In this document: piece by piece, positions 1 to 53,291 of the stretch
How the letters are laid out: the number at the start of each line of letters is the position of its first letter
Numbering within the stretch: the stretch's first letter is position 1
Assembly (NCBI GenBank): GCA_035627695.1
Contig: DASPLE010000058.1
Location: forward strand, 43,423-107,422
Length of the DNA stretch: 64,000 nucleotides
Direction: 5' to 3'
Origin: Planctomycetota bacterium
GTDB taxonomy: Bacteria; Planctomycetota; UBA11346
The notes under the pieces: model-generated
Told to the model about the DNA's origin: nothing
Database searches by the model: none
Seen by the model: the letters and a program-made list of their open reading frames with translations, nothing else
Program-made: the position numbers and the translations under genes

Positions 1-2
1 CC

Positions 3-1616
3 ATCGACGCCATCGTCGGCGCGCACCGCTGGGCGACGCCCGACACCCTCCAGCGCCTGCGCTCGCAGCACGGCGCGGGCGATGCGGCCAGCTACCTGCG
101 GCTGCTCGGCACCAGCCACGTCCTCGACTCGGAGAAGCGCGCGCAGCTCGACCAGGTGCAGATGCAGCAGAACGTGCTGCCGGCCTTCCAGCTGCTCAAG
201 AAGCTCGGCGCCGGCGGCATGGGCACGGTCTGGCTCGCGCGCATGGCCGGCGTCGACGAGCCGCTCGCGCTCAAGGTCATCAACGCGCGCCTCGCGGTCG
301 ACGCCGACTTCCTCGGCCGCTTCCACCGCGAGACCAAGGCGCTCGCCGGCCTGCGCCATCCGCACATCGCCGCGGTCATCGACTCGGGCGGCGTCCAGGA
401 CACGCACTACCTGGCGATGGAGTACATCAACGGCCCGAACCTGGGCGAGATGCTCAAGACGCACAAGGCCATCCCCGAGGCCTACGTCCTGCGCATCATC
501 CATCAGATCGCCGAGGGCCTCGCCTACGTCAACGGCACGTGCGGCCTCGTCCACCGCGACATCAAGCCCGAGAACATCCTGGTGAAGCGCCTCGACGACG
601 CGGCGATGTTCCCCGAGGACGACATCGCGAAGCTGATCGACTTCGGCCTGGTCAAGAACGCCAACGACGACGAGCACCTGACCCAGACCGGGATGACCAT
701 CGGCACCCCGCTGTACATGTCGCCGGAGCAGGTGCGCGGCGAGAAGCTCGACGGCCGCAGCGACATCTACGCGCTCGGCGCGACCATGTACCACCTGCTG
801 ACGGGCACCGCGCCGTTCAAGGGCTCGAGCCCCGGGGCGATCATGAGCGCCCACCTGACCGAGCCCGTCCCCGATCCGGGCGACCTCGTCCCGAGCCTGA
901 GCGACGCGACGCGCCGCCTGGTCACCATGGCGATGGCCAAGAACGTCGACGACCGCTTCCGCGGCTTCGACGCGCTGGTGCGCGCGATCGACGAGGCCGA
1001 GCAGGCCGCGCACGAGAAGGGCGGCGGCATGAAGCTGCTGCGCAAGCCGCTGGTCATCGCCAAGAAGCCCGCCGCCACGAAGAAGCCCGGCACCGGACCG
1101 CACGACGGCTCGCACCCCAGCGGTGAACGCCCGGCCGCGGAGCTGACCGAACGCATCGCGCGCAAGCACAGCGAGAGCCAGCGCGAGTCGGGCCGCCTCC
1201 AGAAGAGCAGCGGCCGCTTCCAGGTGGCGAAGGAACACGGCGCGCCCGCCCCCCTCCAGGCGCTCACCGAGCGCCAGGTGCGCCCGGCCCCGCCGGCGGC
1301 CATCACCGCGACCGCCTCGCTCGAGGACTCGGTGAACCTGCGCCCGTCCGACGCCGTCGCCGTGACCAACGCCCTGACCAAGCCGCACGACCCGCCGCGC
1401 TCCCGTCCCGGCTCGTCCGTCGCCGCCGCCGCCCATCCCACGCCGGCGCCCCATCCGTCGCCGCTGGCCACGCCGCCGAGCGATCCGCACAAGCGCAGCG
1501 CGGTCTACGATGTCGACCCGACCACCGCCACCGGGTTCGGGATCGTCCCGTGGACCATCCTGGCGCTGGCGATCCTGGCGACGCTCGGGTTCGCGGCTTT
1601 CCAGCTGCTCTGGTAG
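3..1616 (+). CDS. Ser/Thr protein kinase (5'-partial; reading frame open to window edge), C-terminal transmembrane anchor
   Basis: Hanks kinase motifs in translation: GxGxxG (LGAGGMGTV), VAIK-like (LALKVI), HRDIKPEN, DFGL, TPLYMSPE; frame stays open upstream of first ATG/GTG so N-terminus lies outside window; hydrophobic C-terminal segment IVPWTILALAILATLGFAAFQLL. Confidence 0.85.
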   Translation: MDAIVGAHRWATPDTLQRLRSQHGAGDAASYLRLLGTSHVLDSEKRAQLDQVQMQQNVLPAFQLLKKLGAGGMGTVWLARMAGVDEPLALKVINARLAVDADFLGRFHRETKALAGLRHPHIAAVIDSGGVQDTHYLAMEYINGPNLGEMLKTHKAIPEAYVLRIIHQIAEGLAYVNGTCGLVHRDIKPENILVKRLDDAAMFPEDDIAKLIDFGLVKNANDDEHLTQTGMTIGTPLYMSPEQVRGEKLDGRSDIYALGATMYHLLTGTAPFKGSSPGAIMSAHLTEPVPDPGDLVPSLSDATRRLVTMAMAKNVDDRFRGFDALVRAIDEAEQAAHEKGGGMKLLRKPLVIAKKPAATKKPGTGPHDGSHPSGERPAAELTERIARKHSESQRESGRLQKSSGRFQVAKEHGAPAPLQALTERQVRPAPPAAITATASLEDSVNLRPSDAVAVTNALTKPHDPPRSRPGSSVAAAAHPTPAPHPSPLATPPSDPHKRSAVYDVDPTTATGFGIVPWTILALAILATLGFAAFQLLW

Positions 1617-1699
1617 AGGCGCAAGGCCGTCGCGAGCTTCGCGTCGCGCTCCCGGCTCCGGGCTTCGAGCCTCTGGCCTTTGGCCTTCGCCCGACGAGC

Positions 1700-2635
1700 A
1701 TGCGGCCCGTGGCGTTCGCCGGGCGCAATATCATCTCGATCGCCGACTTCGGCCACGCCGACCTCATCGCCGTGCTCGATGCGGCCGCTGCGCTCGAGCG
1801 CGAGCCGCGGCCGCGGCTGTGCGATGGCCGTCTGATGGCGACGCTGTTCTTCGAGCCGTCGACCCGCACCCGCCTCAGCTTCGAAGCCGCGATGCACAAG
1901 CTCGGCGGCTCGGTGATCGGCTTCTCCGACGTCGCCTCGACCAGCGCCAAGAAGGGCGAGAGCCTCGCCGACACCATCCGCATGGTCGAGCAGTACGCCG
2001 ACGTCGTGGTCATGCGCCATCCGCGCGACGGCTCGGCGCGCCTGGCCAGCGAGGTCAGCCGCGTCCCGATCATCAACGGCGGCGACGGCTCCAACCAGCA
2101 CCCGACCCAGACGTTCATCGACCTCTACACCATCGCCAAGCTGTTCCCCGAGCTGCGCGACGGCACGCGCGAGCTGACGGTGGCCTTCGCCGGCGACCTC
2201 CGCTACGGCCGCACCGTGCACAGCCTGCTCGCGGCGCTGGCGCATTTCCGCTGCCGCGTGCTGACCGTCGCGCCGCGCGGCCTCGAGATGCCCGAGCAGC
2301 ACCTCGCCCACGCGCGCGAGGCCGGCGTGCGCATCGACGCGGTGCCGTCGCTGACCGACGCGATCCGCGCCGCCGACGTGCTGTACATGACCCGCCTGCA
2401 GGAGGAGCGCTTCCCCGATCCGCTCGAGTTCGGCCACATCAAGGCGACCTACCGCGTCGACGCCGCGATGCTCGCCGGCGCCAACCCGCGCCTGCGCATC
2501 CTGCACCCGCTGCCGCGCGTCAACGAGATCGCCACCGACGTCGACCGCACGCCTCACGCGCACTACTTCGCCCAGGCCGGCAACGGCATCCCCGTGCGCC
2601 AGGCGCTGCTGGCGATGGTCCTCGGGAAGACCTGA
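1700..2635 (+). CDS. pyrB: aspartate carbamoyltransferase catalytic subunit (archaeal/PyrI-dependent type)
   Basis: STRTR, HPxQ (HPTQ), HPLPR motifs; ORF-track start 1550 would overlap kinase end, so internal ATG at 1700 (MRPVAFAGRN...) chosen; start uncertain. Confidence 0.8.
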   Translation: MRPVAFAGRNIISIADFGHADLIAVLDAAAALEREPRPRLCDGRLMATLFFEPSTRTRLSFEAAMHKLGGSVIGFSDVASTSAKKGESLADTIRMVEQYADVVVMRHPRDGSARLASEVSRVPIINGGDGSNQHPTQTFIDLYTIAKLFPELRDGTRELTVAFAGDLRYGRTVHSLLAALAHFRCRVLTVAPRGLEMPEQHLAHAREAGVRIDAVPSLTDAIRAADVLYMTRLQEERFPDPLEFGHIKATYRVDAAMLAGANPRLRILHPLPRVNEIATDVDRTPHAHYFAQAGNGIPVRQALLAMVLGKT

Positions 2636-2636
2636 C

Positions 2637-3092
2637 ATGCCCGACTCGCACAAGGTCCGCCAGGTCGAGGCCATCGCCAACGGCACGGTCATCGACCACA
2701 TCCCGTCGGCCGCGACGATGATCGTGGTCTCGATGCTGGCCAACGACGACGACGAGGTCTTCATCGGCCAGAACCTGCGCTCGGCGCGGGTCGGGCGCAA
2801 AGGCGTGGTCAAGATCGCCGGGCGCGAGCTGTCCGACCGCGAGGCCTCGAGCCTGGCGCTGATCGCGCCGGGCGCGTCGCTGTCGATCATCCGCGACTAC
2901 AAGGTCGTCGCCAAGCACGTCGTGCCGGTGCCCGAGGTGTTCGAGGACGTCGCGCGCTGCGCCAATCCGAACTGCGTCACCAACCACGAGCAGTGGCCGA
3001 CCAAGTTCGAAGTCGTCGGACAGCAGCCGCTGCGCGTGCGCTGCCGCTACTGCGAGCGCGGCTTCGCGCCGGGCGAGCTCGAACCGACGTGA
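2637..3092 (+). CDS. pyrI: aspartate carbamoyltransferase regulatory subunit
   Basis: 151 aa; Cys4 zinc domain (CANPNC...CRYCE); 1 nt downstream of pyrB stop. Confidence 0.85.
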   Translation: MPDSHKVRQVEAIANGTVIDHIPSAATMIVVSMLANDDDEVFIGQNLRSARVGRKGVVKIAGRELSDREASSLALIAPGASLSIIRDYKVVAKHVVPVPEVFEDVARCANPNCVTNHEQWPTKFEVVGQQPLRVRCRYCERGFAPGELEPT

Positions 3093-3093
3093 G

Positions 3094-3119
3094 GGCGGCC
3101 GGTTCCCCGGCCGCCCATC
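3094..3119. terminator. GC-rich perfect hairpin (10-bp stem GGGCGGCCGG/CCGGCCGCCC, loop TTCC) between convergent pyrI and ECF gene ends; no U-tract
   Basis: inverted repeat read directly from sequence; sits in the 36-nt gap between two convergent stop codons. Confidence 0.4.
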
Positions 3120-3128
3120 CCATCCCGT

Positions 3129-5516
3129 TCAGTTGATCCCGGAGACCCCCGCCGCCGCGCCGGCGCCGGCGGCCGCGATCGCGGCGATCACCGCGGCGAT
3201 GCCGCTGGCCTCGGCGTTGAAGCCGTCCTCGTCGGCGCGCATCACCATCCATCCGGCCTCGCGCTCCTCCTCCAGGCGGCGCGACGCCTCCTCCATGCCG
3301 GCGACCTCCTCGTGGGGCAGGCCCGACGCCGCGGCCATCGGCACCGCCAGGTCGATCAGGCGATCGGTGCGCACCAGCAGCCGCGCCATCGCCGGCGCGT
3401 CGCCGGTCGCGACCAGGGACGCCGCGACATCCGGCACCTGCGCGAACGCCGCGCCGTGCACCGCGAACGCCGCCACGCCGGCGGGATTGCTGGTGCACAC
3501 CAGGTGCCCGTCGTGGTAGCCGAGCTGGAACAGGAACAGCATCGCCGGGATGCGCACGATGCCGTCGGCGGGCGCCTGGCCGAGCAGCCCGGCGATCGCG
3601 TCGACCAGCGCGCGCGCGGAGCCGGGCGTCGTCGGCAGCGCCGCGGTCAGCGCCGGCATGGCGCCGACCGGTTCGAGGTAGCCGATCAGCGCGCCATCGA
3701 CCTCGGCCCCGATGCCGCGCACCGCCGCGATCAGCGCGGCCATCGTCCCGCCCTCGTCCTGCGTGGACACCTGCAGCAGCATCCCCTCCAGCAGCGCGCT
3801 GGTGAACACGTCGCTGCCGCGCATCGCCCACGCGCCCGCGAGCAACGCCTCGGGTGGAACGCGCTGCCACACGTCGGCGGCCAGCGTCGGCATGCCCGCC
3901 AGCATGTCGCGCTGCTGCGTCCCCTGCGCGATGCTCGCGGCGGTCATGCGGAACCGTCCCCGATCGATCCAGAACGTGAGGTGGCCAGCCTCAATGATCT
4001 CCTGCGGCGGCACGCCGAGGATGTCCGCATACGCGCGCGGATCATGCGGCCGCATCACCATGCGCATGGTCACGTCGGCGGGGCCCTGCGGAGTGCTCAT
4101 CCAGGCGAGATCGCCGTCGTTCCACGCCGTCCGCATGCGCATCCCGAGCACGCGCGGGCTGGCCGTGAAGGCCAACGAGCAGTCGTCGCCGCTGAGCGAC
4201 ACCGTGCCGTCTTCGCCGGGCGTCGCGGCGAGGCGGTCTGCGATGCGCGCGCGCCAGCGCTCGGCCGCGGCATCATCGCTGAAGCGGGCGACGGCATCGG
4301 CGCGATACGCGGGGAAGCCGCCGAGCGTCGGCGGATGCTTCGGCGTGCCGGGCACCTCGCGACGCTCGAGCAGCGCCTTCCGCTGCTCGCGCATCATCTC
4401 CTGCTGCTTCGCCGGCCCGCCGAGATGCCCCTTCGCGGCGTCCAGCAGGACCGCCTCCATCTCCTCCGGCCTGAACATCGACATCGGATCCATGCGCAGC
4501 TCGATGTCCTCGATCCCGGCGAGTTCGCCCGAGATCGTGTCGACGATCGTCCCCGGCAGCATCGCGCCGATCGGCGAGTCGACGATGCCGCGCCAGGAAT
4601 CCAGCGGCCGGCGCCAACGCACGACGACGCCCACATCGGCGCGCATCGCCTGCGCGACGCGCGCGACGCGCTGGTCCTCGGTCTCGGGCGGCGGGTTCAC
4701 GGGCGGCGCGGCCTCGATCGCGGCCCGCGCCGGTTCGGGGCGATCGGCGGCCGCGCCATGCGTGGCCAGGAACAGGGTGGCGACGCACAGGACGGCGGCG
4801 CCGGCGACGACGATGATCTTCACGATGGGACTCTCTCTGGTCGACCACTGCAGTATCCGCGCCCCCACGACCGCAGCGGTCGTTCCCGCCATGGCGGCGC
4901 GAGGAAGGCGATGGACCCGCGCGACGAGCGCGTCCGGCACCGCGGCGTGCGCCTCGTCGCCGAGCAGGGCGACGAGCCCCGCCAGCGACAGGGTGCAGCC
5001 GCGCGCCGTCAACCGGCGCCGCAGGGCGCCCAGGCCCTGCTGCACGCGCGCCGCCACCGTCGCCTTGGCGCAGCCCTGCTGCTCGGCGACCTCGGCGTAG
5101 CTGTGGCCGGCGAGCTGGCTGAGCAGCACCGCGTCGCGCTCGGGCGCGGGCAGGCTGGCCAGGGCGTCGTCGATCAGCGCGCGCGCCTCGGCGCGTTCCA
5201 GGGCCGACATCTCGGGGCGATCCATCGTCGTCGCCTCCGGCTGCGCCGCGCGTTCCTCCGCGGTGCGCCGGCGCATGCGATCGCGCCGGGCGCGCTGGAT
5301 CACGAATCCAGTCGTGCGGTACAGCCAGCTGGCCAACGCGGGACCCTCGGCCGGAGCCTCGTCCCGTCGTCTCCACAGCACCAGGAACACCGCCTGCACC
5401 GCGTCGTCGACGTCGGCGCCCTTGAGCGACCGCCCGCAGCGGGCGGCGACCAGGGGCGCGTAACGCGCGACGGCATCGGCGAAGGCGGCCTCATCGATCA
5501 CACCGGAGTCGGTCAT
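3129..5516 (-). CDS. ECF-type sigma factor fused to a transmembrane helix and a ~550-aa C-terminal extracytoplasmic domain of unknown function (paralog 1)
   Basis: sigma70 region 2 (DAVQAVFLVLWRRR...ASWLYRTTGF) and region 4 HTH (LSQLAGHSYAEVAEQQGCAKATVAARVQQGL); TM IVKIIVVAGAAVLCVATLFLA; start taken at internal ATG (MTDSGVIDEAAF) matching the paralog. Confidence 0.7.
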   Translation of the reverse strand: MTDSGVIDEAAFADAVARYAPLVAARCGRSLKGADVDDAVQAVFLVLWRRRDEAPAEGPALASWLYRTTGFVIQRARRDRMRRRTAEERAAQPEATTMDRPEMSALERAEARALIDDALASLPAPERDAVLLSQLAGHSYAEVAEQQGCAKATVAARVQQGLGALRRRLTARGCTLSLAGLVALLGDEAHAAVPDALVARVHRLPRAAMAGTTAAVVGARILQWSTRESPIVKIIVVAGAAVLCVATLFLATHGAAADRPEPARAAIEAAPPVNPPPETEDQRVARVAQAMRADVGVVVRWRRPLDSWRGIVDSPIGAMLPGTIVDTISGELAGIEDIELRMDPMSMFRPEEMEAVLLDAAKGHLGGPAKQQEMMREQRKALLERREVPGTPKHPPTLGGFPAYRADAVARFSDDAAAERWRARIADRLAATPGEDGTVSLSGDDCSLAFTASPRVLGMRMRTAWNDGDLAWMSTPQGPADVTMRMVMRPHDPRAYADILGVPPQEIIEAGHLTFWIDRGRFRMTAASIAQGTQQRDMLAGMPTLAADVWQRVPPEALLAGAWAMRGSDVFTSALLEGMLLQVSTQDEGGTMAALIAAVRGIGAEVDGALIGYLEPVGAMPALTAALPTTPGSARALVDAIAGLLGQAPADGIVRIPAMLFLFQLGYHDGHLVCTSNPAGVAAFAVHGAAFAQVPDVAASLVATGDAPAMARLLVRTDRLIDLAVPMAAASGLPHEEVAGMEEASRRLEEEREAGWMVMRADEDGFNAEASGIAAVIAAIAAAGAGAAAGVSGIN

Positions 5517-5622
5517 CGTCTTCCTCGCGCTCCAGTGCCCGGCCGCGATGGCGCGTTCGGCACATTCCGCGGAGCGGTGGCCGGCGCGTCGCCGCGGGGC
5601 GGCCGACCAGGCTGCCAGCGCC

Positions 5623-5628
5623 ATTATA
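5623..5628 (-). promoter_or_regulatory. perfect TATAAT hexamer (minus strand) ~110 nt upstream of ECF paralog 1 start; candidate -10 element
   Basis: AT-only hexamer is very rare in this 72% GC sequence; no convincing -35 found. Confidence 0.25.
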
Positions 5629-5661
5629 GCCGCAGCCGGGCGCCCCCGCGCCGGCGAGCGC

Positions 5662-7911
5662 CTAGTTGACGCCGCTGACCGCCATCGCCATGGATCCGGC
5701 GATCACCGCGCCGACCGCGCCGACGGCCGCCGCGGCCCCGCCGGCTTCGAGGCGCAGGCCACCCGCCCCGGCGCGTATGGTCATCCAGCCGGCCTCGCGC
5801 TCGTCGCGCAGGCGCTGCGCGCCATCGGCGACCAGCGCCGCGCGCGCCTCATCCCCGACCAGCGGTCCGATCAGATCGAGGATCCGATCGGCGCGCACCA
5901 CCAGCTGTCCGAGAGCCGGGGCCTCGCCGGATGCGGCGATCGAAGCGGCGACGTCGGCTTCGTTGCTGAAACCGGGTCCCTGCGCCGTGAACGCCGCCAG
6001 ACCGTCCGGATGGGTCGAGCAGATCAGGTGCCGACCATGCCAGCCGACCCGCAGCATGAGCGGCATGAGCGGGACGGTGAGCATGCCCGTGGCGTCGGGC
6101 TCGCGCCCGGACAGCGCGCCGAGCCTCGCGACCAGCGCCCGCGCCTCGGTTTCGCCGGTCGGCAGCGCGACGGTCATCGCCGGCATCCCGCCGGCAGCCT
6201 CCACGTAGCCGACGACGTCGCCGTCCATCGCGGCGGAAAGCGCGACCACGTCCTCGACGAGCGTGAGAGCTTCGCCCCCCTGCACGACATTGGGCAGCGC
6301 CAGCATGGCGATCGTGCGCAGGACGCCGCTCGACAGCTCGTCGCCACCGCGCACGGCATAGGCGCCGGCGATGAGCGCCTCGCGCGGGATCCGCTGCCAG
6401 CTCGACGCGTCCACTGCCGGAGCCGACTCGAGCATCGGGCGGGTCATCGGCCCGTTGGGCGGCAGCACGCCATCGAGCCGCAACCGGCCGCGCTCGAACC
6501 ACAGGTCGATGCGCAGCAGGTCGCCGATCGCCACGCCGCCGACGGGGCGGACGCAGGCGCGCAGCGCCAGGCGTCCCGGCTCGATCCCATCGAGCGACGG
6601 GAGCCAGCCGAGATCACCCTGGTTGTGGTCGGTATCCAGCCGTGCGCGCAGCTCGGCGCCGTTCGCGGTCACCGACAGCGTGCAGCCGTCGCCGCGCGCG
6701 CTCCACACGTCATCGCCGCTCGTCGTCCAGACGACCTGCCCGCCGAGCCCGTCATCGATCGCCTGACGCCACGGCGAGGCATCCGCGGCGGCGGCGTCCG
6801 CGAAGCTGACGACGAGGTCGGTCCGATTCACCCCGCGGCCGGCGATGCGCGCCGACGGATTGCGGGCCTTTCCCACCTGGTGCGCGCCGAGCTCGGGATC
6901 GAGCCGCAGCTCGACTGCCTCGATCCCGACCAGCCATCGGGCGATCGGAGCGACGGTCTCCGTCGGGATCAGGGCCCCGATCGGCGACTCCTGGAACGCG
7001 GTGAGGGCGGCCATCGGTCGGCGCCAGCGCACCAGGAGGCAGGTCTCGACGCGCCCTCCGGCCTCGACCGGTGCCGGCGCCGGATCAGGCGTGGCCGCGG
7101 CCGCGGCCACGGGCGATGGCGGCTCGGGCGTCGGCTGCGTGCCGAGATCCGCTCCCACGAGCAGCGACACGGCGAGCGCGCACAGCGCGACGGCGCCGCA
7201 CGAAGCGATGATCTTCACGACGGGACTCTCTCTCATCGACCACAGGAGTATCCGCGCCCCCACGACCGCAGCGGTCGTCCCGGTCATGACGGCGCGAGGA
7301 AGCCGATGGATGCGCGCCGTCAGATCGTCCGGCACCGCCGCCTGCGCCTCGTCGCCGAGCAGGGCGATGAGCCCGGCCAGCGACAACGTGCAGCCGCGCG
7401 CCGTCAACCGACGCCGCAGGGCGCCCAGGCCCTGCTGCACGCGCGCCGCCACCGTCGCCTTCGCGCAGCCCTGCTGCTCGGCGACCTCGGCGTAGCTGTG
7501 GCCGGCGAGCTGGCTGAGCAGCACGGCTTCGCGCTCGGCCGCCGGCAGGTGCGCCAACGCGTCGTCGATCAGCGCGCGCGCCTCGGCGCGTTCGAGGTCG
7601 GAGAGCGTCGTCGCGTCCATGCTCGTCGGCTCCTGCGCTGCCGCCCCCTGCTCGGCGGAGCGCCGGCGCGCGCCATCGCGCCGCGCCTGCCGCAGCACGA
7701 ATCCCGTCGTGCGGTACAGCCAGCTCGCCAGCGCCGGCCCCTCGGCGGGAGCCTCGCGCCGGCGCCGCCACAGCACGAGGAACACCGCCTGCACGGCGTC
7801 GTCGGCGTCGGCGCCGGGGATCGCGCGCCGGCAACGGGCGGCGACCAGCGGCGCGTAACGCTCGACGGCGCGCGCGTAGGCCGCCTCGTCGCTGATGGTG
7901 GTGTCGATCAT
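5662..7911 (-). CDS. ECF-type sigma factor fused to TM helix and large C-terminal domain (paralog 2, tandem duplicate of 3129..5516)
   Basis: N-terminal 250 aa nearly identical to paralog 1 (AVQAVFLVLWRRR.EAPAEGPALASWLYRTTGF, LSQLAGHSYAEVAEQQGCAKATVAARVQQGLGALRRRLTARGCTLSLAGL); C-terminal domains homologous but diverged; start at internal ATG MIDTTISDEAAY. Confidence 0.7.
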   Translation of the reverse strand: MIDTTISDEAAYARAVERYAPLVAARCRRAIPGADADDAVQAVFLVLWRRRREAPAEGPALASWLYRTTGFVLRQARRDGARRRSAEQGAAAQEPTSMDATTLSDLERAEARALIDDALAHLPAAEREAVLLSQLAGHSYAEVAEQQGCAKATVAARVQQGLGALRRRLTARGCTLSLAGLIALLGDEAQAAVPDDLTARIHRLPRAVMTGTTAAVVGARILLWSMRESPVVKIIASCGAVALCALAVSLLVGADLGTQPTPEPPSPVAAAAATPDPAPAPVEAGGRVETCLLVRWRRPMAALTAFQESPIGALIPTETVAPIARWLVGIEAVELRLDPELGAHQVGKARNPSARIAGRGVNRTDLVVSFADAAAADASPWRQAIDDGLGGQVVWTTSGDDVWSARGDGCTLSVTANGAELRARLDTDHNQGDLGWLPSLDGIEPGRLALRACVRPVGGVAIGDLLRIDLWFERGRLRLDGVLPPNGPMTRPMLESAPAVDASSWQRIPREALIAGAYAVRGGDELSSGVLRTIAMLALPNVVQGGEALTLVEDVVALSAAMDGDVVGYVEAAGGMPAMTVALPTGETEARALVARLGALSGREPDATGMLTVPLMPLMLRVGWHGRHLICSTHPDGLAAFTAQGPGFSNEADVAASIAASGEAPALGQLVVRADRILDLIGPLVGDEARAALVADGAQRLRDEREAGWMTIRAGAGGLRLEAGGAAAAVGAVGAVIAGSMAMAVSGVN

Positions 7912-8084
7912 CGTCGTCCTCGCGGTCCAGTGGCCCGTCCGCGAGGTGCGTTCGGCACTTTCCGCCGGCTGACCGAGGCCGGGGGCGCGCACGGGGCAAC
8001 GTGACTGCCCGCCTAGGTATACGCCACGAACGACCGGCCGGCCCGGGCGCCGGGGCGCCAGGGGCCGGCGTGCGCGGCCGGAGG

Positions 8085-9385: not shown

Positions 9386-10795
<1,410 letters not shown>

Positions 10796-10867
10796 GCCGG
10801 CAGTGTCGATGCGGATCGCGCGTCTCAAGCCGGGCGAAGCGATTGACACGGACGCGTCGCGTAGGGT

Positions 10868-28256: not shown

Positions 28257-28814
28257 CTACCGCGGCGCCCGCGCCCGCGCCTTCGCCCGCGCCTTCGCCC
28301 GCGCCTTCGCCCGCGCGCGCTCGCGCAGGAGGCGGCGGTATTCGCGCCCGACCCGGTTCTGCGCGCGCAGGCGCAGCATGGTGCCGCGGCAGCGCGGCGC
28401 GCCGCAGCGGCAGCGGTAGCGCGCCGTCCACACCCGTCGGTAGGGACCATCGATGATCAGGTTGTAGTCGAAGCCCAGCTCATCGCCGGGCGCGATCGGG
28501 CGCAGCGCGACCAGGAACACGCGCTGCCCGCGGATCACCGACTCGCAGTTCGGCGCGCACGAGTGGTTGATGAAGCGCGCGGCGTTGCCGTTGCGCGAGC
28601 CATCGATGACCACGTCCGGCGCGACCTCGAACAGCATGGTGTGGCCGTCGCGGCTGGTCGCCTGGCGCTCGGCCTCGTCGGCCGTCAGGCGTTGGCCGAC
28701 GTACTCGCCGATGCGCCCGCCGGTGCGCACGGCGCGCGTGGCGAAGGCGCCGCGGCCGTGGATCGCCGAGGTGCGGACGACGAACGGCTCGGTCTTTTTC
28801 GCGCGCGGCGCCAT
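28257..28814 (-). CDS. SET-domain protein (lysine methyltransferase fold) with C-terminal basic (KARA)n tail
   Basis: GRGAFATRA...GEYVG, RFINHSCAPNC, GDELGFDY, post-SET CRCGAPRCRG; tail RERARAKARAKARAKARARAPR. Confidence 0.75.
   Translation of the reverse strand: MAPRAKKTEPFVVRTSAIHGRGAFATRAVRTGGRIGEYVGQRLTADEAERQATSRDGHTMLFEVAPDVVIDGSRNGNAARFINHSCAPNCESVIRGQRVFLVALRPIAPGDELGFDYNLIIDGPYRRVWTARYRCRCGAPRCRGTMLRLRAQNRVGREYRRLLRERARAKARAKARAKARARAPR
28270..28322. repeat. 12-nt tandem repeat (GCGCCTTCGCCC)x~4 inside 3' end of SET gene, encoding the KARA tail
   Basis: gcgccttcgcccgcgccttcgcccgcgccttcgccc read directly. Confidence 0.85.
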
Positions 28815-28917
28815 CGGGCTCGGCACGCTGCGCCTCGCGCCGGTCATGACAAGGCCGCGCACGGTTCGGATGCACAGCCGATGCGCCGGACGCGGACCGC
28901 GCCACGATCCACGCATG

Positions 28918-29400
28918 CCGGCCTACGCAGTCCCCGATGCGCAGCTGATCGACGAATGCGACGCGACCAGCTCGTCGACCCACAGCCCCGGTGGCCAGCA
29001 CCGCAACAAGGCGGAATCGGCGGTGCGCCTGCGTCATCGGCCGAGCGGGCTGGTCGCGCAGTGCGAAGCCCATCGCGACCGCTCGGACAACCGCGTCGCG
29101 GCGTTGCGGCGGCTGCGCATCCGCCTCGCGCTGCACGAGCGCGGCGCCGCCGATCCGGCGTGGGTCGCGCGCGGCGACGCGCCACCCGGCCCCGACGACG
29201 ACGGCTACGCGCTGGCGGTCGCGGCGGCGATCGACGCCGTCGCGACCCGGCGCGGCGCGCTGGGCGACGCGGCGCGCGACCTCGGCGTCAGCACCAGCCG
29301 CCTGAGCCGCATCCTGTGCGCCGACAAGGAGGTGCTGCAGGCCGTCAACCGGATCCGCGCGGACAACGACCTCAAGCCGCTCCATCCGGCGCGCGGCTGA
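28918..29400 (+). CDS. hypothetical protein with C-terminal Fis-type HTH
   Basis: C-terminal DAARDLGVSTSRLSRILC...; the track ORF 28567..29400 overlaps the SET gene, so trimmed to internal ATG; weak. Confidence 0.3.
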   Translation, partial: PAYAVPDAQLIDECDATSSSTHSPGGQHRNKAESAVRLRHRPSGLVAQCEAHRDRSDNRVAALRRLRIRLALHERGAADPAWVARGDAPPGPDDDGYALAVAAAIDAVATRRGALGDAARDLGVSTSRLSRILCADKEVLQAVNRIRADNDLKPLHPARG

Positions 29401-34977: not shown

Positions 34978-36930
34978 TCAGCCGCTGCCCGACGGCGGCT
35001 GCGGGACGATCGCCCAGCGCTGGTTGTCGCTGCCGTGCTCCGACCACTGGATGACATCCGCTCCGTCCACGGTCGAGGCGCCGGCGACATCGAGCACCTT
35101 GCCGCTGTGCGCGGCGACCAGGCGGTAGCACCCGCCGCCGACGGGCTCGATGCGCCAGCGCTGGTTGGCGCCGCCATGCGCCGGCCACTGGATCGCGTCG
35201 CCGCCATCGGCGGTCGCGGCCCCGCCGACGTCGAGCGCCTGGCCGCTGCAGCGCGCGGTGAGCGTGTAGGTGCCATCGCTCAGGGCGTCGATGCGCCACT
35301 GCTGCGCCGACGTGCCGTTGTCGGTCCACTGGACGACGTCCGCGCCGTTGGCGCGCGACGCGCCCGCGACGTCGAGGCACTTGCCGCTGTGCTTGGCGAC
35401 CAGCTTGCACCACGCGCCGGTGACGATCGCGTCGCCGCCGGGCGGCACGCCGCCCGCGACCGTGATCGTCCACGCCGGCGAGCGCGCGGTGCCGCCGGCC
35501 GCGTCCCAGGCGAGCGCGCTGACGCGATGCTCGCCGTCGCGCGCCGTCGCGCTGTCCCAGACGACCTCGAACGGCGCGGTCCGCGACTCGCCGACGACGA
35601 CGCCATCGACCAGGAAGCGCACGCCGACGACGGCGACGTCATCCGCGGCGAACGCCCCGAGGCGCACCGCGCCGCGCGCCACCGCGCCGTCGTACGGCGC
35701 GCGCAGCGCGACCGTCGGCGCGGCGATGTCCGCGACCGCCGCGCGCACGAACGTGCCGTTCAGGTCCTGGCCGTAGCCCTGCCACATCGCCGGCGTGCTC
35801 CACGGCTCGCTCCAATGGAACGGCGCCGCCAGCGAGCCGATGTGGTAGGTGTTCCAGTCGAAGCGGTTCGATTTCTCCGCGCCGAAGTAGATCGCGCCGC
35901 CTGGCACATCGTGCGCCACGCCGTTGTGGCCGCGGCGCATGCGCACGACGTTGTGGTGCACCCACAGGTCGTGCTGGTCGTGGGTGCCGTGCAGCGCCGG
36001 CTCGCCGCGGATCTGCTGCTTGGCGCAGATCGCGCTCGCGTTGTCGATCACCGTGTTGCCGTGGACCTCGACGTCCGGGCTCTCCGACACCAGGATGCCG
36101 GCGCCCCACAGCCACGTCGCGTCGCCGCCGTTGCGCGCGACGAAGTTGTTCCGGATCGTCGCGCGGTAGCTGATCTCGTGGAAGATCCCCATGCCGGCGT
36201 TGTCGACGATGACGTTGTTCTCGTAGAGCGTGTCGATGTTGTTGATGTCGGTCCAGATGCCCGGGCCGTGGTTGTGGTGGCTGTGGTTGCCGCGGACGAC
36301 CAGGCCACGCGTCACGACCAGCTTGCCGGCGCCGCCGTCCTCGAGCCGCTTCCAGTTGTTGCCCGCGATCTCGTTGCCTTCGATCAGCATGCCGTCGCCG
36401 GTGCCGATCAGCCCGTTCCAGCCGTTGTCGAGCAGCCGGCAACGGGTGATGCGCGCGCCGTCGCCGGTGCGGATCGCCGCCATCGCGTTGTCGCGGACGA
36501 CGCAGGCGTCGATGACCCAGCCGATCCCGCCCTGGCCGGTCCCGTGTCCGCCGATGCGGATCGCGCCGAAGTGCAGCGGCGGATTGTAGCGCTGGATGAC
36601 CAGGTTCTCGATGCGCACGCCGGCCGGCCGCGCCGCGACATCGCCCATGAAGGCGTATTCGACCGTGCCGCCGCCATCCATGATCGCGCCGCCATCGCCG
36701 ATGAACCGCTGACCCGCTCGCGGCAGCACCGATTGCCGCAGGTGGACGCCGGCGCGCAGGCGGAACGTCGTCGCGCCGGGATTGGCGTCGACCGCCGCCT
36801 GGATGCTCTGGCCGGGCACGATGACGACCTCGACGGCGTCGAGTCCTGGCACCGCCGCCACGGCGAGCGCGGCGAGGACGATCGCCGCGGTCAGGCCTGC
36901 GTGGATGCGGGACGGTGGGCTGGGGATCAT
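34978..36930 (-). CDS. secreted right-handed parallel beta-helix protein (pectate-lyase-fold) + Ig-like region + ricin-B (CBM13-type) lectin domain
   Basis: signal peptide; repeated NxxxxDN / GN..HHN beta-helix turns; C-terminal three QxW repeats (QQWRI, QRWRI, QRWAI) of beta-trefoil lectin. Confidence 0.75.
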   Translation of the reverse strand: MIPSPPSRIHAGLTAAIVLAALAVAAVPGLDAVEVVIVPGQSIQAAVDANPGATTFRLRAGVHLRQSVLPRAGQRFIGDGGAIMDGGGTVEYAFMGDVAARPAGVRIENLVIQRYNPPLHFGAIRIGGHGTGQGGIGWVIDACVVRDNAMAAIRTGDGARITRCRLLDNGWNGLIGTGDGMLIEGNEIAGNNWKRLEDGGAGKLVVTRGLVVRGNHSHHNHGPGIWTDINNIDTLYENNVIVDNAGMGIFHEISYRATIRNNFVARNGGDATWLWGAGILVSESPDVEVHGNTVIDNASAICAKQQIRGEPALHGTHDQHDLWVHHNVVRMRRGHNGVAHDVPGGAIYFGAEKSNRFDWNTYHIGSLAAPFHWSEPWSTPAMWQGYGQDLNGTFVRAAVADIAAPTVALRAPYDGAVARGAVRLGAFAADDVAVVGVRFLVDGVVVGESRTAPFEVVWDSATARDGEHRVSALAWDAAGGTARSPAWTITVAGGVPPGGDAIVTGAWCKLVAKHSGKCLDVAGASRANGADVVQWTDNGTSAQQWRIDALSDGTYTLTARCSGQALDVGGAATADGGDAIQWPAHGGANQRWRIEPVGGGCYRLVAAHSGKVLDVAGASTVDGADVIQWSEHGSDNQRWAIVPQPPSGSG

Positions 36931-37043
36931 GCGGTGCTCCTGGGGGTTCGCCCGAGGTGGCCGCCGTGTCGTTGAGCGGCGTCAGGGCACCGGCGCCTGC
37001 GGCGGCGGCCGGTGACACACCGGACACGGGCGCGAGCTCGGTA

Positions 37044-37110: not shown

Positions 37111-39240
37111 TCACCGCTCGTGCACGATCGTATCGATGCGCCCGGTCGCCTCGTGCCCCAGCGCGCGGAACTCGTCCCAGGTCAACCGACCGAGCCAGTC
37201 CCAGTGCCGCGCATCGCCCGACGCGACGTGGTAGGTGTTGCCGTCGAAGACGACCGCCTCGTAGAAGCGATCGCCGCGCTCCGGTCCACCCGCGCCGGTC
37301 GCGCCGGCGGAGCCGCGGAAGGTGATGTCGTTGCCGCGCACGCGCACGTCCGCGCAGATCCCCTCGCGGTCCTGGATGATGGCGATGCCATTGCCGCCAG
37401 CCGCGCCGACGACCACGCGGTTGCCGGCGATGTCGACGTCGCGCGCGTTGTACCCGGTGATCTGCGCCCCGAACAGCCACTGGTCGTGGCCGACGCCGTT
37501 GTCGATGGCGGTGTTCCCGGCGATCACCACCTCCGAGCTCGCCTTGACCAAGATCCCGCCGGCATTGCCGGTGACGACGTTGCGTTCGCAGCGCACGCCG
37601 GCGCTGTCCGAGTCGACCCACAACCCGCTGCCGCGATTGTCGTGCACCTCGTTCGCGATCAGCCGCAGCCGCCGCGCGCCATCGAGCTTCGCGCCCGCCG
37701 CCCCCCAACGCACGCCGAAGCCGGCGAAACCGTTGTCGGCGATGCGGTTGTCCTCGATCAGCGCGTCCTCGCCGCCGCCGTTGACCCCGCACGCGCCGTT
37801 GCCGTGGACGCGATTGCCGCGCACCACGCAGCGGTCGCCGATGCGGATGCCGGCGAAATGGTTGCCGCGCACGTCGTTGTCCTCGATCAGCCAACCCGTC
37901 GACACCCGCTCGCCGTCGCCGGCCATGATCGCCGCGAGATGCGCCGGCGTCGCGTAGCGCTCGACCACCAGGCCGCGGATCTCGACGCCGTCGACCAGGC
38001 CGCGGAAGGCGTGCGGCGCCACGCTGGTGGCGACCTCGCGCCCCGCCGGATCGTCGGCGATCCAGATCGCGTCCTCGGCGTAGTCGAAGAACCACGCGCC
38101 CGGCCCGAGCGCGTCGCGGCTGGCGACGTGGCGCAGCACCCGGCTATCGAGGAAGCAGTCGTGGCGGAAGGCGCCACGTTCGCGTCCCGGCTCCATCTCG
38201 CCCTGCGCCGACGCCTCCTGGGTCTGGCCGCGGACCACCCAGTGCGCGCCGTCGCGGACGAACCCATCGAGCAGCCGCGCGCCGTCCAGCACCGCGCCGG
38301 GTTCGCCGATGAAGCGGTCGCGCGCCTTCGGCGCCACCGACTGCAGGCGATGGACGCCCGTCGCGATGACGAAGGTCGTCCCGGGCGGATGCGCGTCGAC
38401 CGCCGCCTGCAGGTCGTCGCCGACCGCGATGCGGACGATCCCGTCGCGCTGCGCCAGCCACCACCCGGTCGGTGCCGCCAGAGCGAGGGCGGCGCACGCC
38501 GCCAACGCCATCGCCTTGAGCTTGACGAGGACGAGCGTCCGGCCGGTCGCGTGCGCTGCCGCGACCGCCACCGGCGACGCGCTGCCGGCCGCGCACGTGG
38601 CGACCAGCGCCGGCGGCGCCGCCTGCGCCGTCTGCGCGCCCAGGAAGCCCAGCACGAGCGCCGACGACACCGGCACGCCGCGACGGCGGAACGCCTCGCG
38701 CAGCCGCTCGAGCGCGCGCGTCAGGCGCGTCTGGATGGTGCGCTCGCCGCAGCGCAGGGTCGCGGCGATCTCGGCGCGCGAGAGCCCCTGGAGGTAGCGC
38801 AGGACGACGACCTCGCGCTGCACGCGCGGCAGGCTCGACAAGGCCGCGTCGAGATGCGGCCGCATGAGATCCCAGCGCTCGCCGTCCGCGGCCGCATCGT
38901 CCACCGCGCGCGTCATCGCCGCCTCCCGTTCCCGTCGCCGGCGCCGGGCCTGCTCGCGCCGCACGTCGCGCGCCGCGTATCCGGCGACGCGGAACAGCCA
39001 CGCCGGCAGCACGGTGTCGCGGCCGAGCCCCTCGAGCCGCCGCAGCAGCACCAGGAACGTCGCCTGGGTCGCGTCGTCCGCCCCCTGCGGGTCGCCGAGC
39101 ACGCGCAGGCAGACGCCGTGGACCAGCCCGGCGTGGCGCCGCACGAGCTCGGCGAAGATCGCGTCCGACGGCGCGAGGCGGTACCGGCCCATCAGGTCGG
39201 CGTCGCTGGCCTCGGCGACGGGCACGGGGTCGTCGGTCAT
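37111..39240 (-). CDS. ECF-type sigma factor fused via one TM helix to a periplasmic parallel beta-helix domain homologous to the neighbouring secreted protein
   Basis: sigma region 2 (ATQATFLVLLRRL...AWLFRVAGY) and region 4 (VVVLRYLQGLSRAEIAATLRCGERTIQTRLTRAL); TM LKAMALAACAALALAAPTGWW; beta-helix repeats (IEDNRIADN, GNRVHGN, HDNRGSG...) and shared DAHPPGTTFVIATGVHRLQSV...DRFIGEPGAVLDG block with 34978..36930. Confidence 0.75.
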   Translation of the reverse strand: MTDDPVPVAEASDADLMGRYRLAPSDAIFAELVRRHAGLVHGVCLRVLGDPQGADDATQATFLVLLRRLEGLGRDTVLPAWLFRVAGYAARDVRREQARRRRREREAAMTRAVDDAAADGERWDLMRPHLDAALSSLPRVQREVVVLRYLQGLSRAEIAATLRCGERTIQTRLTRALERLREAFRRRGVPVSSALVLGFLGAQTAQAAPPALVATCAAGSASPVAVAAAHATGRTLVLVKLKAMALAACAALALAAPTGWWLAQRDGIVRIAVGDDLQAAVDAHPPGTTFVIATGVHRLQSVAPKARDRFIGEPGAVLDGARLLDGFVRDGAHWVVRGQTQEASAQGEMEPGRERGAFRHDCFLDSRVLRHVASRDALGPGAWFFDYAEDAIWIADDPAGREVATSVAPHAFRGLVDGVEIRGLVVERYATPAHLAAIMAGDGERVSTGWLIEDNDVRGNHFAGIRIGDRCVVRGNRVHGNGACGVNGGGEDALIEDNRIADNGFAGFGVRWGAAGAKLDGARRLRLIANEVHDNRGSGLWVDSDSAGVRCERNVVTGNAGGILVKASSEVVIAGNTAIDNGVGHDQWLFGAQITGYNARDVDIAGNRVVVGAAGGNGIAIIQDREGICADVRVRGNDITFRGSAGATGAGGPERGDRFYEAVVFDGNTYHVASGDARHWDWLGRLTWDEFRALGHEATGRIDTIVHER

Positions 39241-39416
39241 CCCGGTCGACATACCCCTGATGGCCGCCGCCCGCCAGATGGCGTCAGCGAACCGGCGCCA
39301 TGCCGCCCGGTGGCCCATGCATCACCTGATCCGGCCCGCGGTTGCCATGCGCCGGCCTCCAGCACACTCCGCGCGCCGGCCCGCCGGATCACCACGGTCG
39401 CGTCCAGGAGCGCCCC

Positions 39417-47036: not shown

Positions 47037-47567
47037 TCAGCGCAGGCGTCTGAACAAGCCCGGATAATCGACGACCAAGCCGTCGCGATCGACGCGCAGC
47101 GACCGTTGGAAGCGGCCACGCGACGCGGTGAAGCGGTAGCGGTCGCCGGCGAGCCGACGGTAGGTCTGGACGGCGGTCGCGACCGTGAGCGACGGCACCG
47201 CGACCAGCGCCACGCGGATGTCGCACGAAGCGCCGACCGCGAGGCGCAGCCGACGGATGGGCAGCGCGTTGGTCAGCGGCGTGCAGCTCAGATCGGCGTC
47301 GCGGCAACCATCGAGCGCGCGGACCCGACGGCCATCGATGCGCCAACGGCCGCGGCCGTCGTGGCGCAGCCGCACGCCGCGCCCGCCCAGCACCGCGACG
47401 TCGAGCGCGCGCGTGGTGCCTGCCCGGTCGCAGCGCAGGCGATACGTGACCGCCCAGCGCCGCCCGACGACCAGCGCGTCGGCGATGAACGCCGGCGAGG
47501 TGCGCAGCGCCACGCGTTCGATGCCCGGCCCGCGTGCGGGTCGCCACGCGACCTGGCGCTGCGTCAC
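47037..47567 (-). CDS. putative glycolipid-binding domain protein (DUF2248)
   Basis: DCDLSCTPLTNALPIRR, VPSLTV, C-terminal DYPGLFRRL match family hallmarks. Confidence 0.65.
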   Translation of the reverse strand: MTQRQVAWRPARGPGIERVALRTSPAFIADALVVGRRWAVTYRLRCDRAGTTRALDVAVLGGRGVRLRHDGRGRWRIDGRRVRALDGCRDADLSCTPLTNALPIRRLRLAVGASCDIRVALVAVPSLTVATAVQTYRRLAGDRYRFTASRGRFQRSLRVDRDGLVVDYPGLFRRLR

Positions 47568-48001
47568 GGCCCGGACATCGCGGCGATGCGGCGCTCGAGC
47601 TCATCGGGGGCGACGTCCTCGATGTTGGTCGCCACGCACCAGTCGTTGCCGAAGCGGTCGCGGACGATGCCGCTCCGGTCGCCGTAGAACTGGTCCATCG
47701 GCTCGCGTACGCTGGTCGCGCCCGCGGCCAGCGCGGCGCGGTAGGCGTCGTCGGCGCGCTCGACGTAGAGGTTCAACATGGTCCGCGTCGCGGGATGCTC
47801 GGCACCGGCCCGGCCCATCATCACGACCGAGTCGCCGATCCGGACCTCGGCGTGCTGGATGACCCCATCCGGACCGCGCAACGGCGGGGCGAAGACGATC
47901 GCGCCGAAGGCGCGGACCAGGAAGTCGATCTGGCCCTGCACGTCGGGAACGACCAGGTAGGGCGTGATGGTATGGTAGCCGGGCGGCGTGAACGGGCGCA
48001 T
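47564..48001 (-). CDS. VOC/PhnB-like (glyoxalase/bleomycin-resistance fold) protein
   Basis: ITPYLVVPDVQGQIDFLVRAFGA PhnB-like N-terminus; ATGA overlap with downstream gene. Confidence 0.6.
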   Translation of the reverse strand: MRPFTPPGYHTITPYLVVPDVQGQIDFLVRAFGAIVFAPPLRGPDGVIQHAEVRIGDSVVMMGRAGAEHPATRTMLNLYVERADDAYRAALAAGATSVREPMDQFYGDRSGIVRDRFGNDWCVATNIEDVAPDELERRIAAMSGP

Positions 48002-49837: not shown

Positions 49838-49960
49838 GGGTGAGGATACCCCAGGACCGGCCGATCCTCACGCCTTCCCCGGCCCCCTGGCGAACCCCGA
49901 TGCCACGCCGACCGGCCGCGGCGGCTTCCTGCGCGGGCCCCCGACCGCTACAAGGCGCGC

Positions 49961-53192: not shown

Positions 53193-53291
53193 GGCGGGCC
53201 GCGCAGCGTACCGCCCGCCCGTCGCGCGCCAGAGCCCTGCCCGAGCCCGTGCGCGACCGGATCTCACCGACGCCCAGGCGCCGGAAGCACC

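Follow-up and report, generated by a model that had tools for sequence, protein, structure and literature searches.

Why should a planctomycete keep, side by side, two genes that join closely similar sigma factors to clearly diverged outer domains, and would the two copies still act on the same promoters? The question is raised by a tandem gene pair, termed A and B here, in a stretch of 64,000 nucleotides (the window) from contig DASPLE010000058.1 (positions 43,423 to 107,422, forward strand) of Planctomycetota bacterium assembly GCA_035627695.1. Each gene encodes an extracytoplasmic function (ECF) sigma factor that continues, through a linker and a single transmembrane helix, into a large extracytoplasmic domain. 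Extension-fused ECF sigma factors number in the dozens in planctomycetes, and to our knowledge no such protein of this phylum has been experimentally characterised. With slightly more confidence than doubt, we interpret A and B as paralogs that arose by tandem duplication within this lineage from a one-component planctomycetal ECF sigma factor. The sigma factor would be released by proteolysis and autoregulated, the pair serving two inputs and one promoter specificity.

Two single-chain ECF sigma factor fusions in tandem

The high G+C content of the window (73%) results in long spurious open reading frames (ORFs) in every frame, and coding frames were picked by codon-position G+C (GC3). The GC3 values of A and B (Table 1) confirmed their frames, and the start of B was placed at position 7911 because GC3 drops to only 0.61 in the same frame upstream. 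The same start Met is found in all six close homologs. Several other ORFs were considered and rejected: two on the plus strand (3312–5669 and 5548–8004) had the wrong codon-position GC pattern; a long upstream ORF for B was dropped in view of the GC3 value above and of the close homologs beginning at the same Met; and an upstream start for A (ATG at 5624, overlapping a TATAAT hexamer and adding 36 codons) was dismissed given that close homologs share the downstream Met and that the homolog P0006 has an in-frame TGA. An earlier, sequence-only reading of this DNA had correctly recognized two adjacent genes on one strand and gave their products as 796 and 750 amino acids; as the stop codon had been counted, the true lengths are 795 and 749. 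The product of gene A is identical to a public protein (P0001, named sigma-70 family sigma factor by NCBI, from a Planctomycetota metagenome-assembled genome), and an independent ENA assembly (L001) is 99.975% identical to positions 1–7892 of the window, so that an assembly error is an unlikely source of the tandem arrangement.

In both proteins, the matches above the Pfam cut-offs were Sigma70_r2 (30.6 bits in A and 30.9 bits in B; cut-off 24) and Sigma70_r4_2 (47.2 and 47.9 bits; cut-off 25.7), together spanning residues ~16–165, and the NCBIfam model TIGR02937 scored 73.4 and 73.8 bits (cut-off 42.9). Neither Pfam nor NCBIfam identified a further sigma region (sigma1 or sigma3), or anything past the sigma core, in A or B. 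The two proteins accordingly have the composition that defines ECF (group 4) sigma factors, sigma2 and sigma4 without sigma3 or sigma1. They also have the hallmarks of one-component ECF sigma factors, an extension of >50 residues (here ~625 residues after sigma4) and no adjoining anti-sigma gene. The neighbours of the pair are pyrI/pyrB, a Gfo/Idh/MocA oxidoreductase gene and the gene of an NtrC-type regulator. Since there is no anti-sigma gene adjoining A or B and no conserved neighbours were found among homologs, each protein is likely to be a self-contained single-chain sigma/sensor.

The core and linker were assigned to the cytoplasm and the large domain to the outside, based on the logic that a sigma factor must be cytoplasmic and that only one transmembrane helix is present; the signal peptides on sigma-less relatives (see below) support the outer location. 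A Pro/Ala-rich spacer separates the helix from the ~480-residue domain, and both proteins end, as had been noted from the sequence, in an apolar Ala/Gly-rich tail (hydropathy segments 773–791 in A and 727–745 in B). The linker carries W224 in 24 and S225 in 20 of the 29 sigma-carrying family members, and the same linker type is present in related sigma factors with WD40 or CarboxypepD_reg extensions. A fused anti-sigma domain of the zf-HC2/RskA type had no Pfam or NCBIfam match at E ≤ 0.1 in 52 family members, and the linker comprises only ~60 residues.

Divergence of the two modules and probable gene conversion

A and B are 48% identical over their full length, with 81% identity over residues 1–232 (sigma and linker), 40% from residue 291 to the end and 100% across sigma4 (residues 129–176). 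The N-termini had been described as near-identical, which is true of sigma4 only and not of residues 1–232; the description of the outer domains as homologous yet diverged agrees with our values. In both modules the nearest relative of A is B, and vice versa (81% and 40%, versus 56–61% and 27–34% to the homologs P0004, P0064, P0005 and P0006), which supports the tandem duplication that had been proposed and indicates that it was specific to this lineage.

The duplication had also been called recent, and this part of the sequence-only reading had to be given up. Synonymous divergence (dS, Nei-Gojobori) is 0.14 in sigma4, 0.33 in the N-terminal module and 0.74 in the outer domain, with omega values of 0.38 and 0.74 for the latter two. 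Fourfold sites in conserved codons are 76% identical in the N-terminal module and 56% in the outer domain, versus 44% expected from base composition; the synonymous sites of the outer domain are near-saturated between A and B. The high outer-domain dS and near-chance fourfold identity led us to conclude that the duplication is old and that homogenisation has later affected the sigma module, most of all sigma4. The clearest trace is at nt 388–524 of the genes, where there are 2 mismatches in 137 nt, versus 84% identity over nt 1–720, with a longest identical run of 62 nt (p = 0.0014 for the similarity of the tract, codon-position-stratified permutation). Gene conversion between the tandem copies appears to be the likeliest cause of the homogenisation, and the higher N-terminal similarity is best read as stronger constraint plus gene conversion rather than youth.

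A comparable arrangement was identified on one 10.2-kb contig of JGI metagenome 3300071358, which carries the paralogs P0004, P0064 and P0005 (804, 810 and 787 amino acids) on the same strand, and implies that tandem amplification of such genes recurs independently. A gene for a 399-residue ECF-like protein lies on the opposite strand between the second and third of these paralogs.

An undescribed family of extracytoplasmic domains

A profile of the two outer domains was searched against 1.84 billion representative proteins (E ≤ 1e-3) and retrieved 63 relatives (clusters or representatives), a rare family. Most are 770–805 residues long and have the same order of sigma, linker, transmembrane helix and domain. 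A distant minority (P0043, P0047, P0051, P0054 and others) instead have a signal peptide, the domain, a real transmembrane helix and a Pro-rich tail, with no sigma part and no sigma gene nearby. Several proteins of ~540 residues that seemed to be free of a sigma part and suggested "split" sigma and sensor genes (P0007, P0016) were rejected as fused genes truncated at contig edges.

The family is described in none of the databases searched (Pfam, NCBIfam and PDB sequences): the outer domain gave no match in any of them even at E = 10, and no family member matched Pfam or NCBIfam outside the sigma core. When the outer domain alone was used as the query of a k-mer protein search, nothing but the protein itself came back; a first genome scan returned nothing, and later genome and metagenome scans returned sigma-domain relatives only, none with the outer domain. 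The AlphaFold2 model of A, built from a 52-sequence alignment (with two sequences only, the prediction was useless, at a predicted local distance difference test score (pLDDT) of 41), had a mean pLDDT of 85.6. Residues 280–770 were mostly >90, and confidence was low only in the sigma2–sigma4 loop, the transmembrane/Pro-rich spacer and the last 13 residues. The outer domain is thus a real fold and not low-complexity sequence, which had been raised as a concern. It is modelled as an alpha/beta structure with beta-hairpins interleaved with helices. The invariant positions of the domain are Gly, Pro, Thr and Phe, a pattern that speaks for a module with a binding or structural role and against an enzyme. 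Internal duplication of the domain was discounted (hhalign probability 0.4%). Foldseek searches of the PDB matched the N-terminus to ECF sigma factors and gave a single non-sigma match, to the lipoprotein TP0453; a viral fold library gave sigma matches only.

A leader element shared by A and B

Two blocks are common to the leaders of A and B, as had been reported: a 5' block (GGAATGTGCCGAACGCGCC at 5568–5550 in A and GGAAAGTGCCGAACGCACC at 7963–7945 in B) and a 3' block, GGGC..CTGGA.CGCGAGGA.GACGATG, at 5540–5514 and 7936–7909, respectively. The sequence GTGCCGAACGC has exactly two copies in the window, both in these leaders. Over the last ~55 nt before the ATG, 48 of 55 columns are identical, and upstream of about −60 the identity is at background. 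The alignment of the two leaders scored 36, versus −1 ± 3.7 for dinucleotide shuffles, none of 2000 of which scored as high. This score, together with the recurrence of part of the element at P0006, bears out the proposal that a regulatory region was kept after the duplication. P0006 is a 40% identical protein encoded at a locus (L099) from another metagenome with other neighbours, and its leader, GGAAAATCCGCTGAACGCACGGCCGCGAGCGGGCATCC...GAGGAAGTCG-ATG, has the blocks at the same distance from the ATG (score 17 against the leader of A, versus −0.2 ± 4; 1 of 2000 shuffles). In the 16.5-kb P0006 locus, GGAA-N5-9-GAACGC occurs once, at the leader. Relative to the start codon, GGAA is at −52 in A and B, at −53 in P0006 and at −50 in P0009, whose leader is AT-rich with GGAAA at that position. 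Because the P0006 motif contains an in-frame TGA and close homologs share their Met start, we regard the element as non-coding, and its recurrence upstream of a 40% identical protein indicates that it is probably functional.

It is plausible that the blocks make up an ECF-type promoter, with GGAA..GAAC as its −35-like and GGGCA as its −10-like part, and similarly plausible that GAGGA(A/C)G, 6–7 nt before the ATG, is the ribosome-binding site (RBS). A leader retained in this manner would fit an autoregulated ECF promoter.

The motif had also been suggested as a regulon marker, which our search of the window did not support, as no other gene carries it upstream: the extra matches, at 44275 and 46399, are intragenic and do not exceed chance, and the leaders of the other two ECF fusions of the window are without it. 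The AT-rich hexamers that had been noticed further upstream are present, TATAAT 54 nt and TATACC 52 nt before the respective GGAA blocks. For TATAAT, 0.18 copies are expected in the window, and 18% of shuffles contain at least one. A sigma70 promoter at these hexamers was rejected, as no −35 partner was found for either, and P0006 has no matching hexamer at that distance. Also rejected were a structured leader RNA or riboswitch (fold z-scores of +0.75, −0.30 and −1.19 versus shuffles, and no Rfam match) and, by sequence inspection, a sigma54 promoter at GGGCAC, in which the −12 GC is not in register and GGCAC is missing from B.

Two further observations concern the leaders. Two 1-nt indels, 12 nt from each other, distinguish that of A from that of B and compensate one another, leaving the upstream in-frame translations similar (..AERAIAAGHWSARKT-M versus ..AERTSRTGHWTARTT-M). 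Given an in-frame stop at this place in the P0006 leader, the similarity is probably due to chance. At ~7900–7960 of locus L002, the closest GTDB sigma-domain relative (43% identity) has a textbook-looking ECF promoter, GGAAC..GTCTAA, ~47 nt before the ATG and followed by GGAGAGGAAG; it is placed similarly to the GGAA block in A and B.

Proposed mechanism and alternative explanations

In the mechanism that we favour, the tethered sigma factor would be inactive, with the linker probably packing on sigma2 and sigma4 as an in-cis anti-sigma segment. A signal at the outer domain would cause this domain to be trimmed, after which a site-2 protease would make an intramembrane cut; we propose regulated proteolysis because of the analogous route of IutY (Prc, then RseP). 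The freed sigma factor would bind core RNA polymerase and transcribe from GGAA..GAACGC..GGGCA, ~52 nt before its own start codon, resulting in positive autoregulation, and would presumably drive a wider regulon as well. Given their identical sigma4, near-identical sigma2 and shared leader element, A and B should recognise the same promoters, each other's included. The pair would probably channel two different inputs into a single promoter specificity, the sigma module being held uniform by gene conversion as the sensors drift apart. In Foldseek comparisons the sigma core of the model was closer to anti-sigma-bound ECF structures (TMt 0.46–0.49, root-mean-square deviation (rmsd) 6–9 Å) than to holoenzyme forms (rmsd ~27 Å), and this compact model, along with the conservation of the linker, lends weak support to in-cis autoinhibition.

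A number of observations weigh against this mechanism. The compact sigma model may be a habit of AlphaFold and not evidence for autoinhibition, no known anti-sigma domain in Pfam matched the linker, there is no site-1 or site-2 protease gene in the window, and the sole non-sigma fold match, TP0453, is weak (E ~1e-2, TMt 0.35–0.40). With respect to the promoter, no canonical ECF −10 (CGTC-like) is present, the spacing between GGAA and GAAC varies from 6 to 8 nt, the motif is found upstream of no other gene of the window, and it is absent from the P0010 leader, three independent leaders having been compared.

There is a minor but real chance that the leader blocks are not an ECF promoter at all and are a leftover of duplication or conversion, a ribosome-binding region or the operator of another regulator, with transcription starting from TATAAT/TATACC. 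The leader identity (48/55) is close to the 84% of the adjoining coding region and drops to the background level past about −60, as would also be seen at a duplication or conversion boundary; the Shine-Dalgarno sequence sits in the 3' block, TATAAT is unique in the 64 kb, and the canonical −10 was not found. However, a boundary of this kind does not fit with the blocks recurring at the same ATG distance in front of the 40% identical P0006, which has no hexamer at the matching distance, and TATAAT itself has no −35 partner and is matched by a single copy in 18% of shuffles; the sigma54 reading of GGGCAC fails for the reasons given above. We consider it unlikely that the sigma factor is never released and works as a full-length tethered regulator (ToxR/CadC-like) or by a conformational switch through the linker, without proteolysis. 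A strongly conserved cytoplasmic linker with a W-S motif would suit a transmission element better than a mere tether, protease genes were not found nearby, and a review proposes activation by conformational change or protein interaction for planctomycetal ECF57 (PMC8999054). On the other hand, a sigma factor must assemble into the RNA polymerase holoenzyme, and IutY, the only characterised transmembrane-tethered sigma fusion, is freed by Prc and RseP (PMC5411451).

The remaining alternatives concern the outer domain and the history of the pair. It is quite improbable, in our estimation, that the large domain is not a sensor but a periplasmic structural or lipid-handling protein that was captured by a duplicated sigma module, the fusion serving to co-localise or co-express its parts. 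Stand-alone versions with a signal peptide and no sigma neighbour exist, Pinto and da Fonseca proposed this capture route for planctomycetal extensions (PMC7671368), and there is the weak fold likeness to the lipid carrier TP0453 (PMC5421087). Nevertheless, most family members are fused to sigma and keep the same order of parts over a divergence as deep as 20–25% identity, the apparent split genes are truncated fusions at contig edges, and capture is compatible with a later role as a sensor. We think it very unlikely that a recent whole-gene duplication was followed by rapid divergence of the sensors under diversifying selection. Such a history would account for A being nearest to B, and B to A, in both modules, and for the higher omega of the outer domain compared with the sigma module. 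Yet dS itself is more than twofold higher in the outer domain, fourfold identity there is close to chance, with the sigma module homogenised afterwards, and the outer domains of A and B (40% identity) have hardly more in common with each other than with their counterparts in other lineages (27–34%). An old duplication with a homogenised sigma module therefore remains our preferred account.

The C-terminal tail and its terminal asparagine

The proteins of 48 of the 63 representatives, and also that of gene B, end in ...[P/L]-[R/K/H/S/T]-[G/I/A/V]-[A/V/I]-Asn-COOH, typically G-V-N, I-A-N or A-A-N. The Asn is preceded by an apolar helix with a median uninterrupted apolar run of 15 residues. The terminal Asn is missing from truncated ORFs, from four fused members (two with Asn-Ser at the end) and from the signal-peptide subgroup. 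The tails do not belong to the PEP-CTERM, GlyGly-CTERM, LPXTG or MYXO-CTERM types, as they are without a PEP, GG or LPXTG motif or a basic cluster and had no NCBIfam match. We speculate, as a long shot, that the apolar helix and terminal Asn, which persist although the family is otherwise only 20–25% identical, form an undescribed C-terminal signal that is read by, or shielded from, a carboxy-terminal processing protease and so gates the first cut. If this were true, the state of the envelope would be coupled to transcription through a tail-gated cut and the ~480-residue domain would be a new envelope-sensing fold; the terminal Asn is a residue that is easy to mutate.

Feature coordinates and other genes in and near the window

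The coordinates of the features of A and B are collected in Table 1.

Table 1. Features of the tandem pair and its leaders (window coordinates; residue numbers refer to the encoded proteins)
Feature	Position	Strand	Description or basis
Gene A	3129..5516	(-)	795 aa, stop codon 3129-3131; ECF sigma / transmembrane / extracytoplasmic-domain fusion; GC3 0.93
A: ECF sigma core, sigma2 + sigma4, residues 1-170	5007..5516	(-)	Pfam, NCBIfam TIGR02937 above cut-off; Foldseek ECF sigma matches
A: sigma4-coding tract, nt 388-524, probable gene-conversion tract	4993..5129	(-)	Near-identical to B
A: conserved cytoplasmic linker, residues 171-232, W-S motif at membrane end	4821..5006	(-)	Family conservation; pLDDT 68-88
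A: single transmembrane helix, residues 234-252	4761..4817	(-)	Kyte-Doolittle 19-aa mean hydropathy 2.62
A: ~480-aa extracytoplasmic alpha/beta domain, residues 291-770	3207..4646	(-)	AlphaFold2 pLDDT mostly >90; undescribed family
A: apolar Ala/Gly tail ending in C-terminal Asn, residues 771-795	3132..3206	(-)	Hydropathy, family comparison
Leader of A	5517..5568	(-)	Candidate ECF-type promoter GGAAT..GAACGC..GGGCAC, then RBS GAGGAAG
TATAAT hexamer	5623..5628	(-)	54 nt upstream of GGAAT block of A; sole copy in 64 kb, either strand
Gene B	5662..7911	(-)	749 aa, stop codon 5662-5664; tandem paralog, same architecture; GC3 0.90
B: ECF sigma core, residues 1-170	7402..7911	(-)	Pfam, NCBIfam
B: counterpart sigma4 conversion tract (probable)	7388..7524	(-)	DNA comparison with A
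B: transmembrane helix, residues 234-252	7156..7212	(-)	Hydropathy 2.57
B: extracytoplasmic domain	5740..7059	(-)	40% identical to A counterpart
B: apolar tail, end ...VSGVN	5665..5739	(-)	Sequence, hydropathy
Leader of B	7912..7963	(-)	Same blocks: GGAAA..GAACGC..GGGCCAC, then GAGGACG
TATACC hexamer	8016..8021	(-)	Equivalent position upstream of B, 52 nt before GGAA block

Two further ECF fusions are encoded in the window. The third (37111–39252, minus strand) has a right-handed beta-helix (Beta_helix/NosD) extension, and the next gene downstream (34978–36981, minus strand) encodes the same Beta_helix domain together with Big_7 and ricin-type lectin domains. The resemblance between the sensor domain of the third fusion and the Beta_helix domain of its neighbour suggests a glycan-sensing sigma factor paired with a glycan-acting target. 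The fourth fusion (53292–56060, minus strand) has ankyrin repeats at residues ~670–890, after a hydrophobic segment, an unusual type of repeat on the extracytoplasmic side, and is followed by a MatE transporter gene (51765–53291).

Links between kinases and ECF sigma factors are known in planctomycetes, and a gene for a Ser/Thr protein kinase that has a membrane anchor at its C-terminus (3–1616, plus strand) lies two genes from A, in convergent orientation. The rpoN gene (sigma54) is located just past the left edge of the window (L001 6277–9585 region), and an NtrC-type sigma54 activator is encoded at 9386–10798 (minus strand). No link to A or B was found. Other minus-strand genes encode a bacterial SET-domain protein (28257–28922), a FapA-family protein (48482–49867) and a putative glycolipid-binding (PF06475) protein (47037–47600).

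Implications

The practical value of the pair is that of a testable model system and not of a new principle, and its interest is modest. A and B form a clean natural pair in which, judging from sequence, the same sigma specificity and the same leader element are combined with two diverged sensor domains. The outer domain folds confidently in the model and represents an unannotated family that is suitable for a Pfam entry. The picture of how these sigma factors multiply is also refined, in that the jumping of sigma modules and the capture of new tails are joined by tandem whole-gene duplication, in which gene conversion probably holds the DNA-recognition module uniform as the sensors diverge.

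Comparison with known systems

The single non-sigma structural match, TP0453 of Treponema pallidum (PDB 3k8g–3k8j), is an alpha/beta/alpha lipoprotein with amphipathic helices and a proposed carrier of lipids or glycolipids (PMC5421087). The match to the model of A had a Foldseek probability of ~1.0 over 266–284 aligned columns, but its E value (~1e-2), TMt (0.35–0.40), rmsd (~10 Å) and identity (8–10%) are those of a weak match. It covers about half of the outer domain, with no sequence relationship, and we treat the likeness as a lead and not an assignment.

The closest mechanistic precedent is IutY of Pseudomonas putida, an ECF243 sigma/anti-sigma fusion that is trimmed by Prc and then cut by RseP (PMC5411451) and that is the only characterised transmembrane-tethered sigma fusion (PMC5411451, PMC8999054). 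Like A and B, it combines in one polypeptide a cytoplasmic ECF sigma factor, one transmembrane helix and a periplasmic regulatory domain. Unlike them, it has an anti-sigma domain of the FecR type and works with a TonB-dependent receptor, neither of which had a match in A, B or their neighbours, and it belongs to another phylum and another extension family. Proteolytic activation has also been proposed for ECF48, ECF52 and ECF53 fusions (PMC8999054). The actinobacterial ECF52 and ECF53 proteins (e.g. SCO4117; PMC8999054) share with A and B the order of ECF sigma factor, transmembrane helix, Pro-rich spacer and large extracytoplasmic domain, but they have a ZAS zinc-finger anti-sigma domain and carbohydrate-binding or glycosyl-hydrolase domains, none of which were detected in A or B.

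Within the planctomycetes, ECF sigma factors with a long C-terminal extension form a recognised class, ECF57 (Casas-Pastor et al. 2021; once included in ECF01-Gob), with a mean of ~5.3 copies per genome (PMC7826278). A and B resemble this class in their phylum, in the ECF core with a long extension and no adjoining anti-sigma gene, and in occurring in multiple copies. The count of four ECF fusions in the 64 kb that had been made from the sequence is correct, and the expansion it pointed to matches the published copy number. Moreover, the nearest sigma-domain relatives of A and B carry WD40 or CarboxypepD_reg extensions on the same type of linker and transmembrane helix. Two conserved cysteines, in sigma2 and sigma4, mark ECF57 (PMC8999054); of these, 27 of 29 family members have C27 (sigma2), and C149 (sigma4) occurs in A, B and 10 of 29 overall. 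The extension of A and B differs, being a ~480-residue alpha/beta domain with a terminal Asn and not WD40. No WD40 or other Pfam domain was found in it, and the published ECF57 criterion is a prevalence of WD40, not a requirement. We refer to A and B as ECF57-like, a placement suggested indirectly by their nearest sigma-domain relatives (planctomycetal WD40-fused or similar).

The four fusions of the window (A, B, the beta-helix and the ankyrin proteins) and the WD40 and CarboxypepD_reg relatives fit the published picture of this class. Pinto and da Fonseca (2020) described planctomycetal paralog clusters with conserved sigma2 and sigma4 and divergent extensions, in which the sigma module duplicates and captures new tails (PMC7671368). 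A and B are likewise paralogs within one genome, with highly conserved sigma2 and sigma4 and poorly conserved extensions. In those clusters, however, the extensions are mostly unrelated, whereas A and B are a whole-gene tandem with homologous extensions (40% identity) and an apparently homogenised sigma module. The class is thus already known, as planctomycetal ECF sigma factors with C-terminal extensions and with duplications that spare the sigma part while the extension diverges. A and B stand apart in their whole-gene tandem duplication with homologous extensions and in the evidence of gene conversion in the sigma module, and the undescribed extension domain and its terminal Asn are new.

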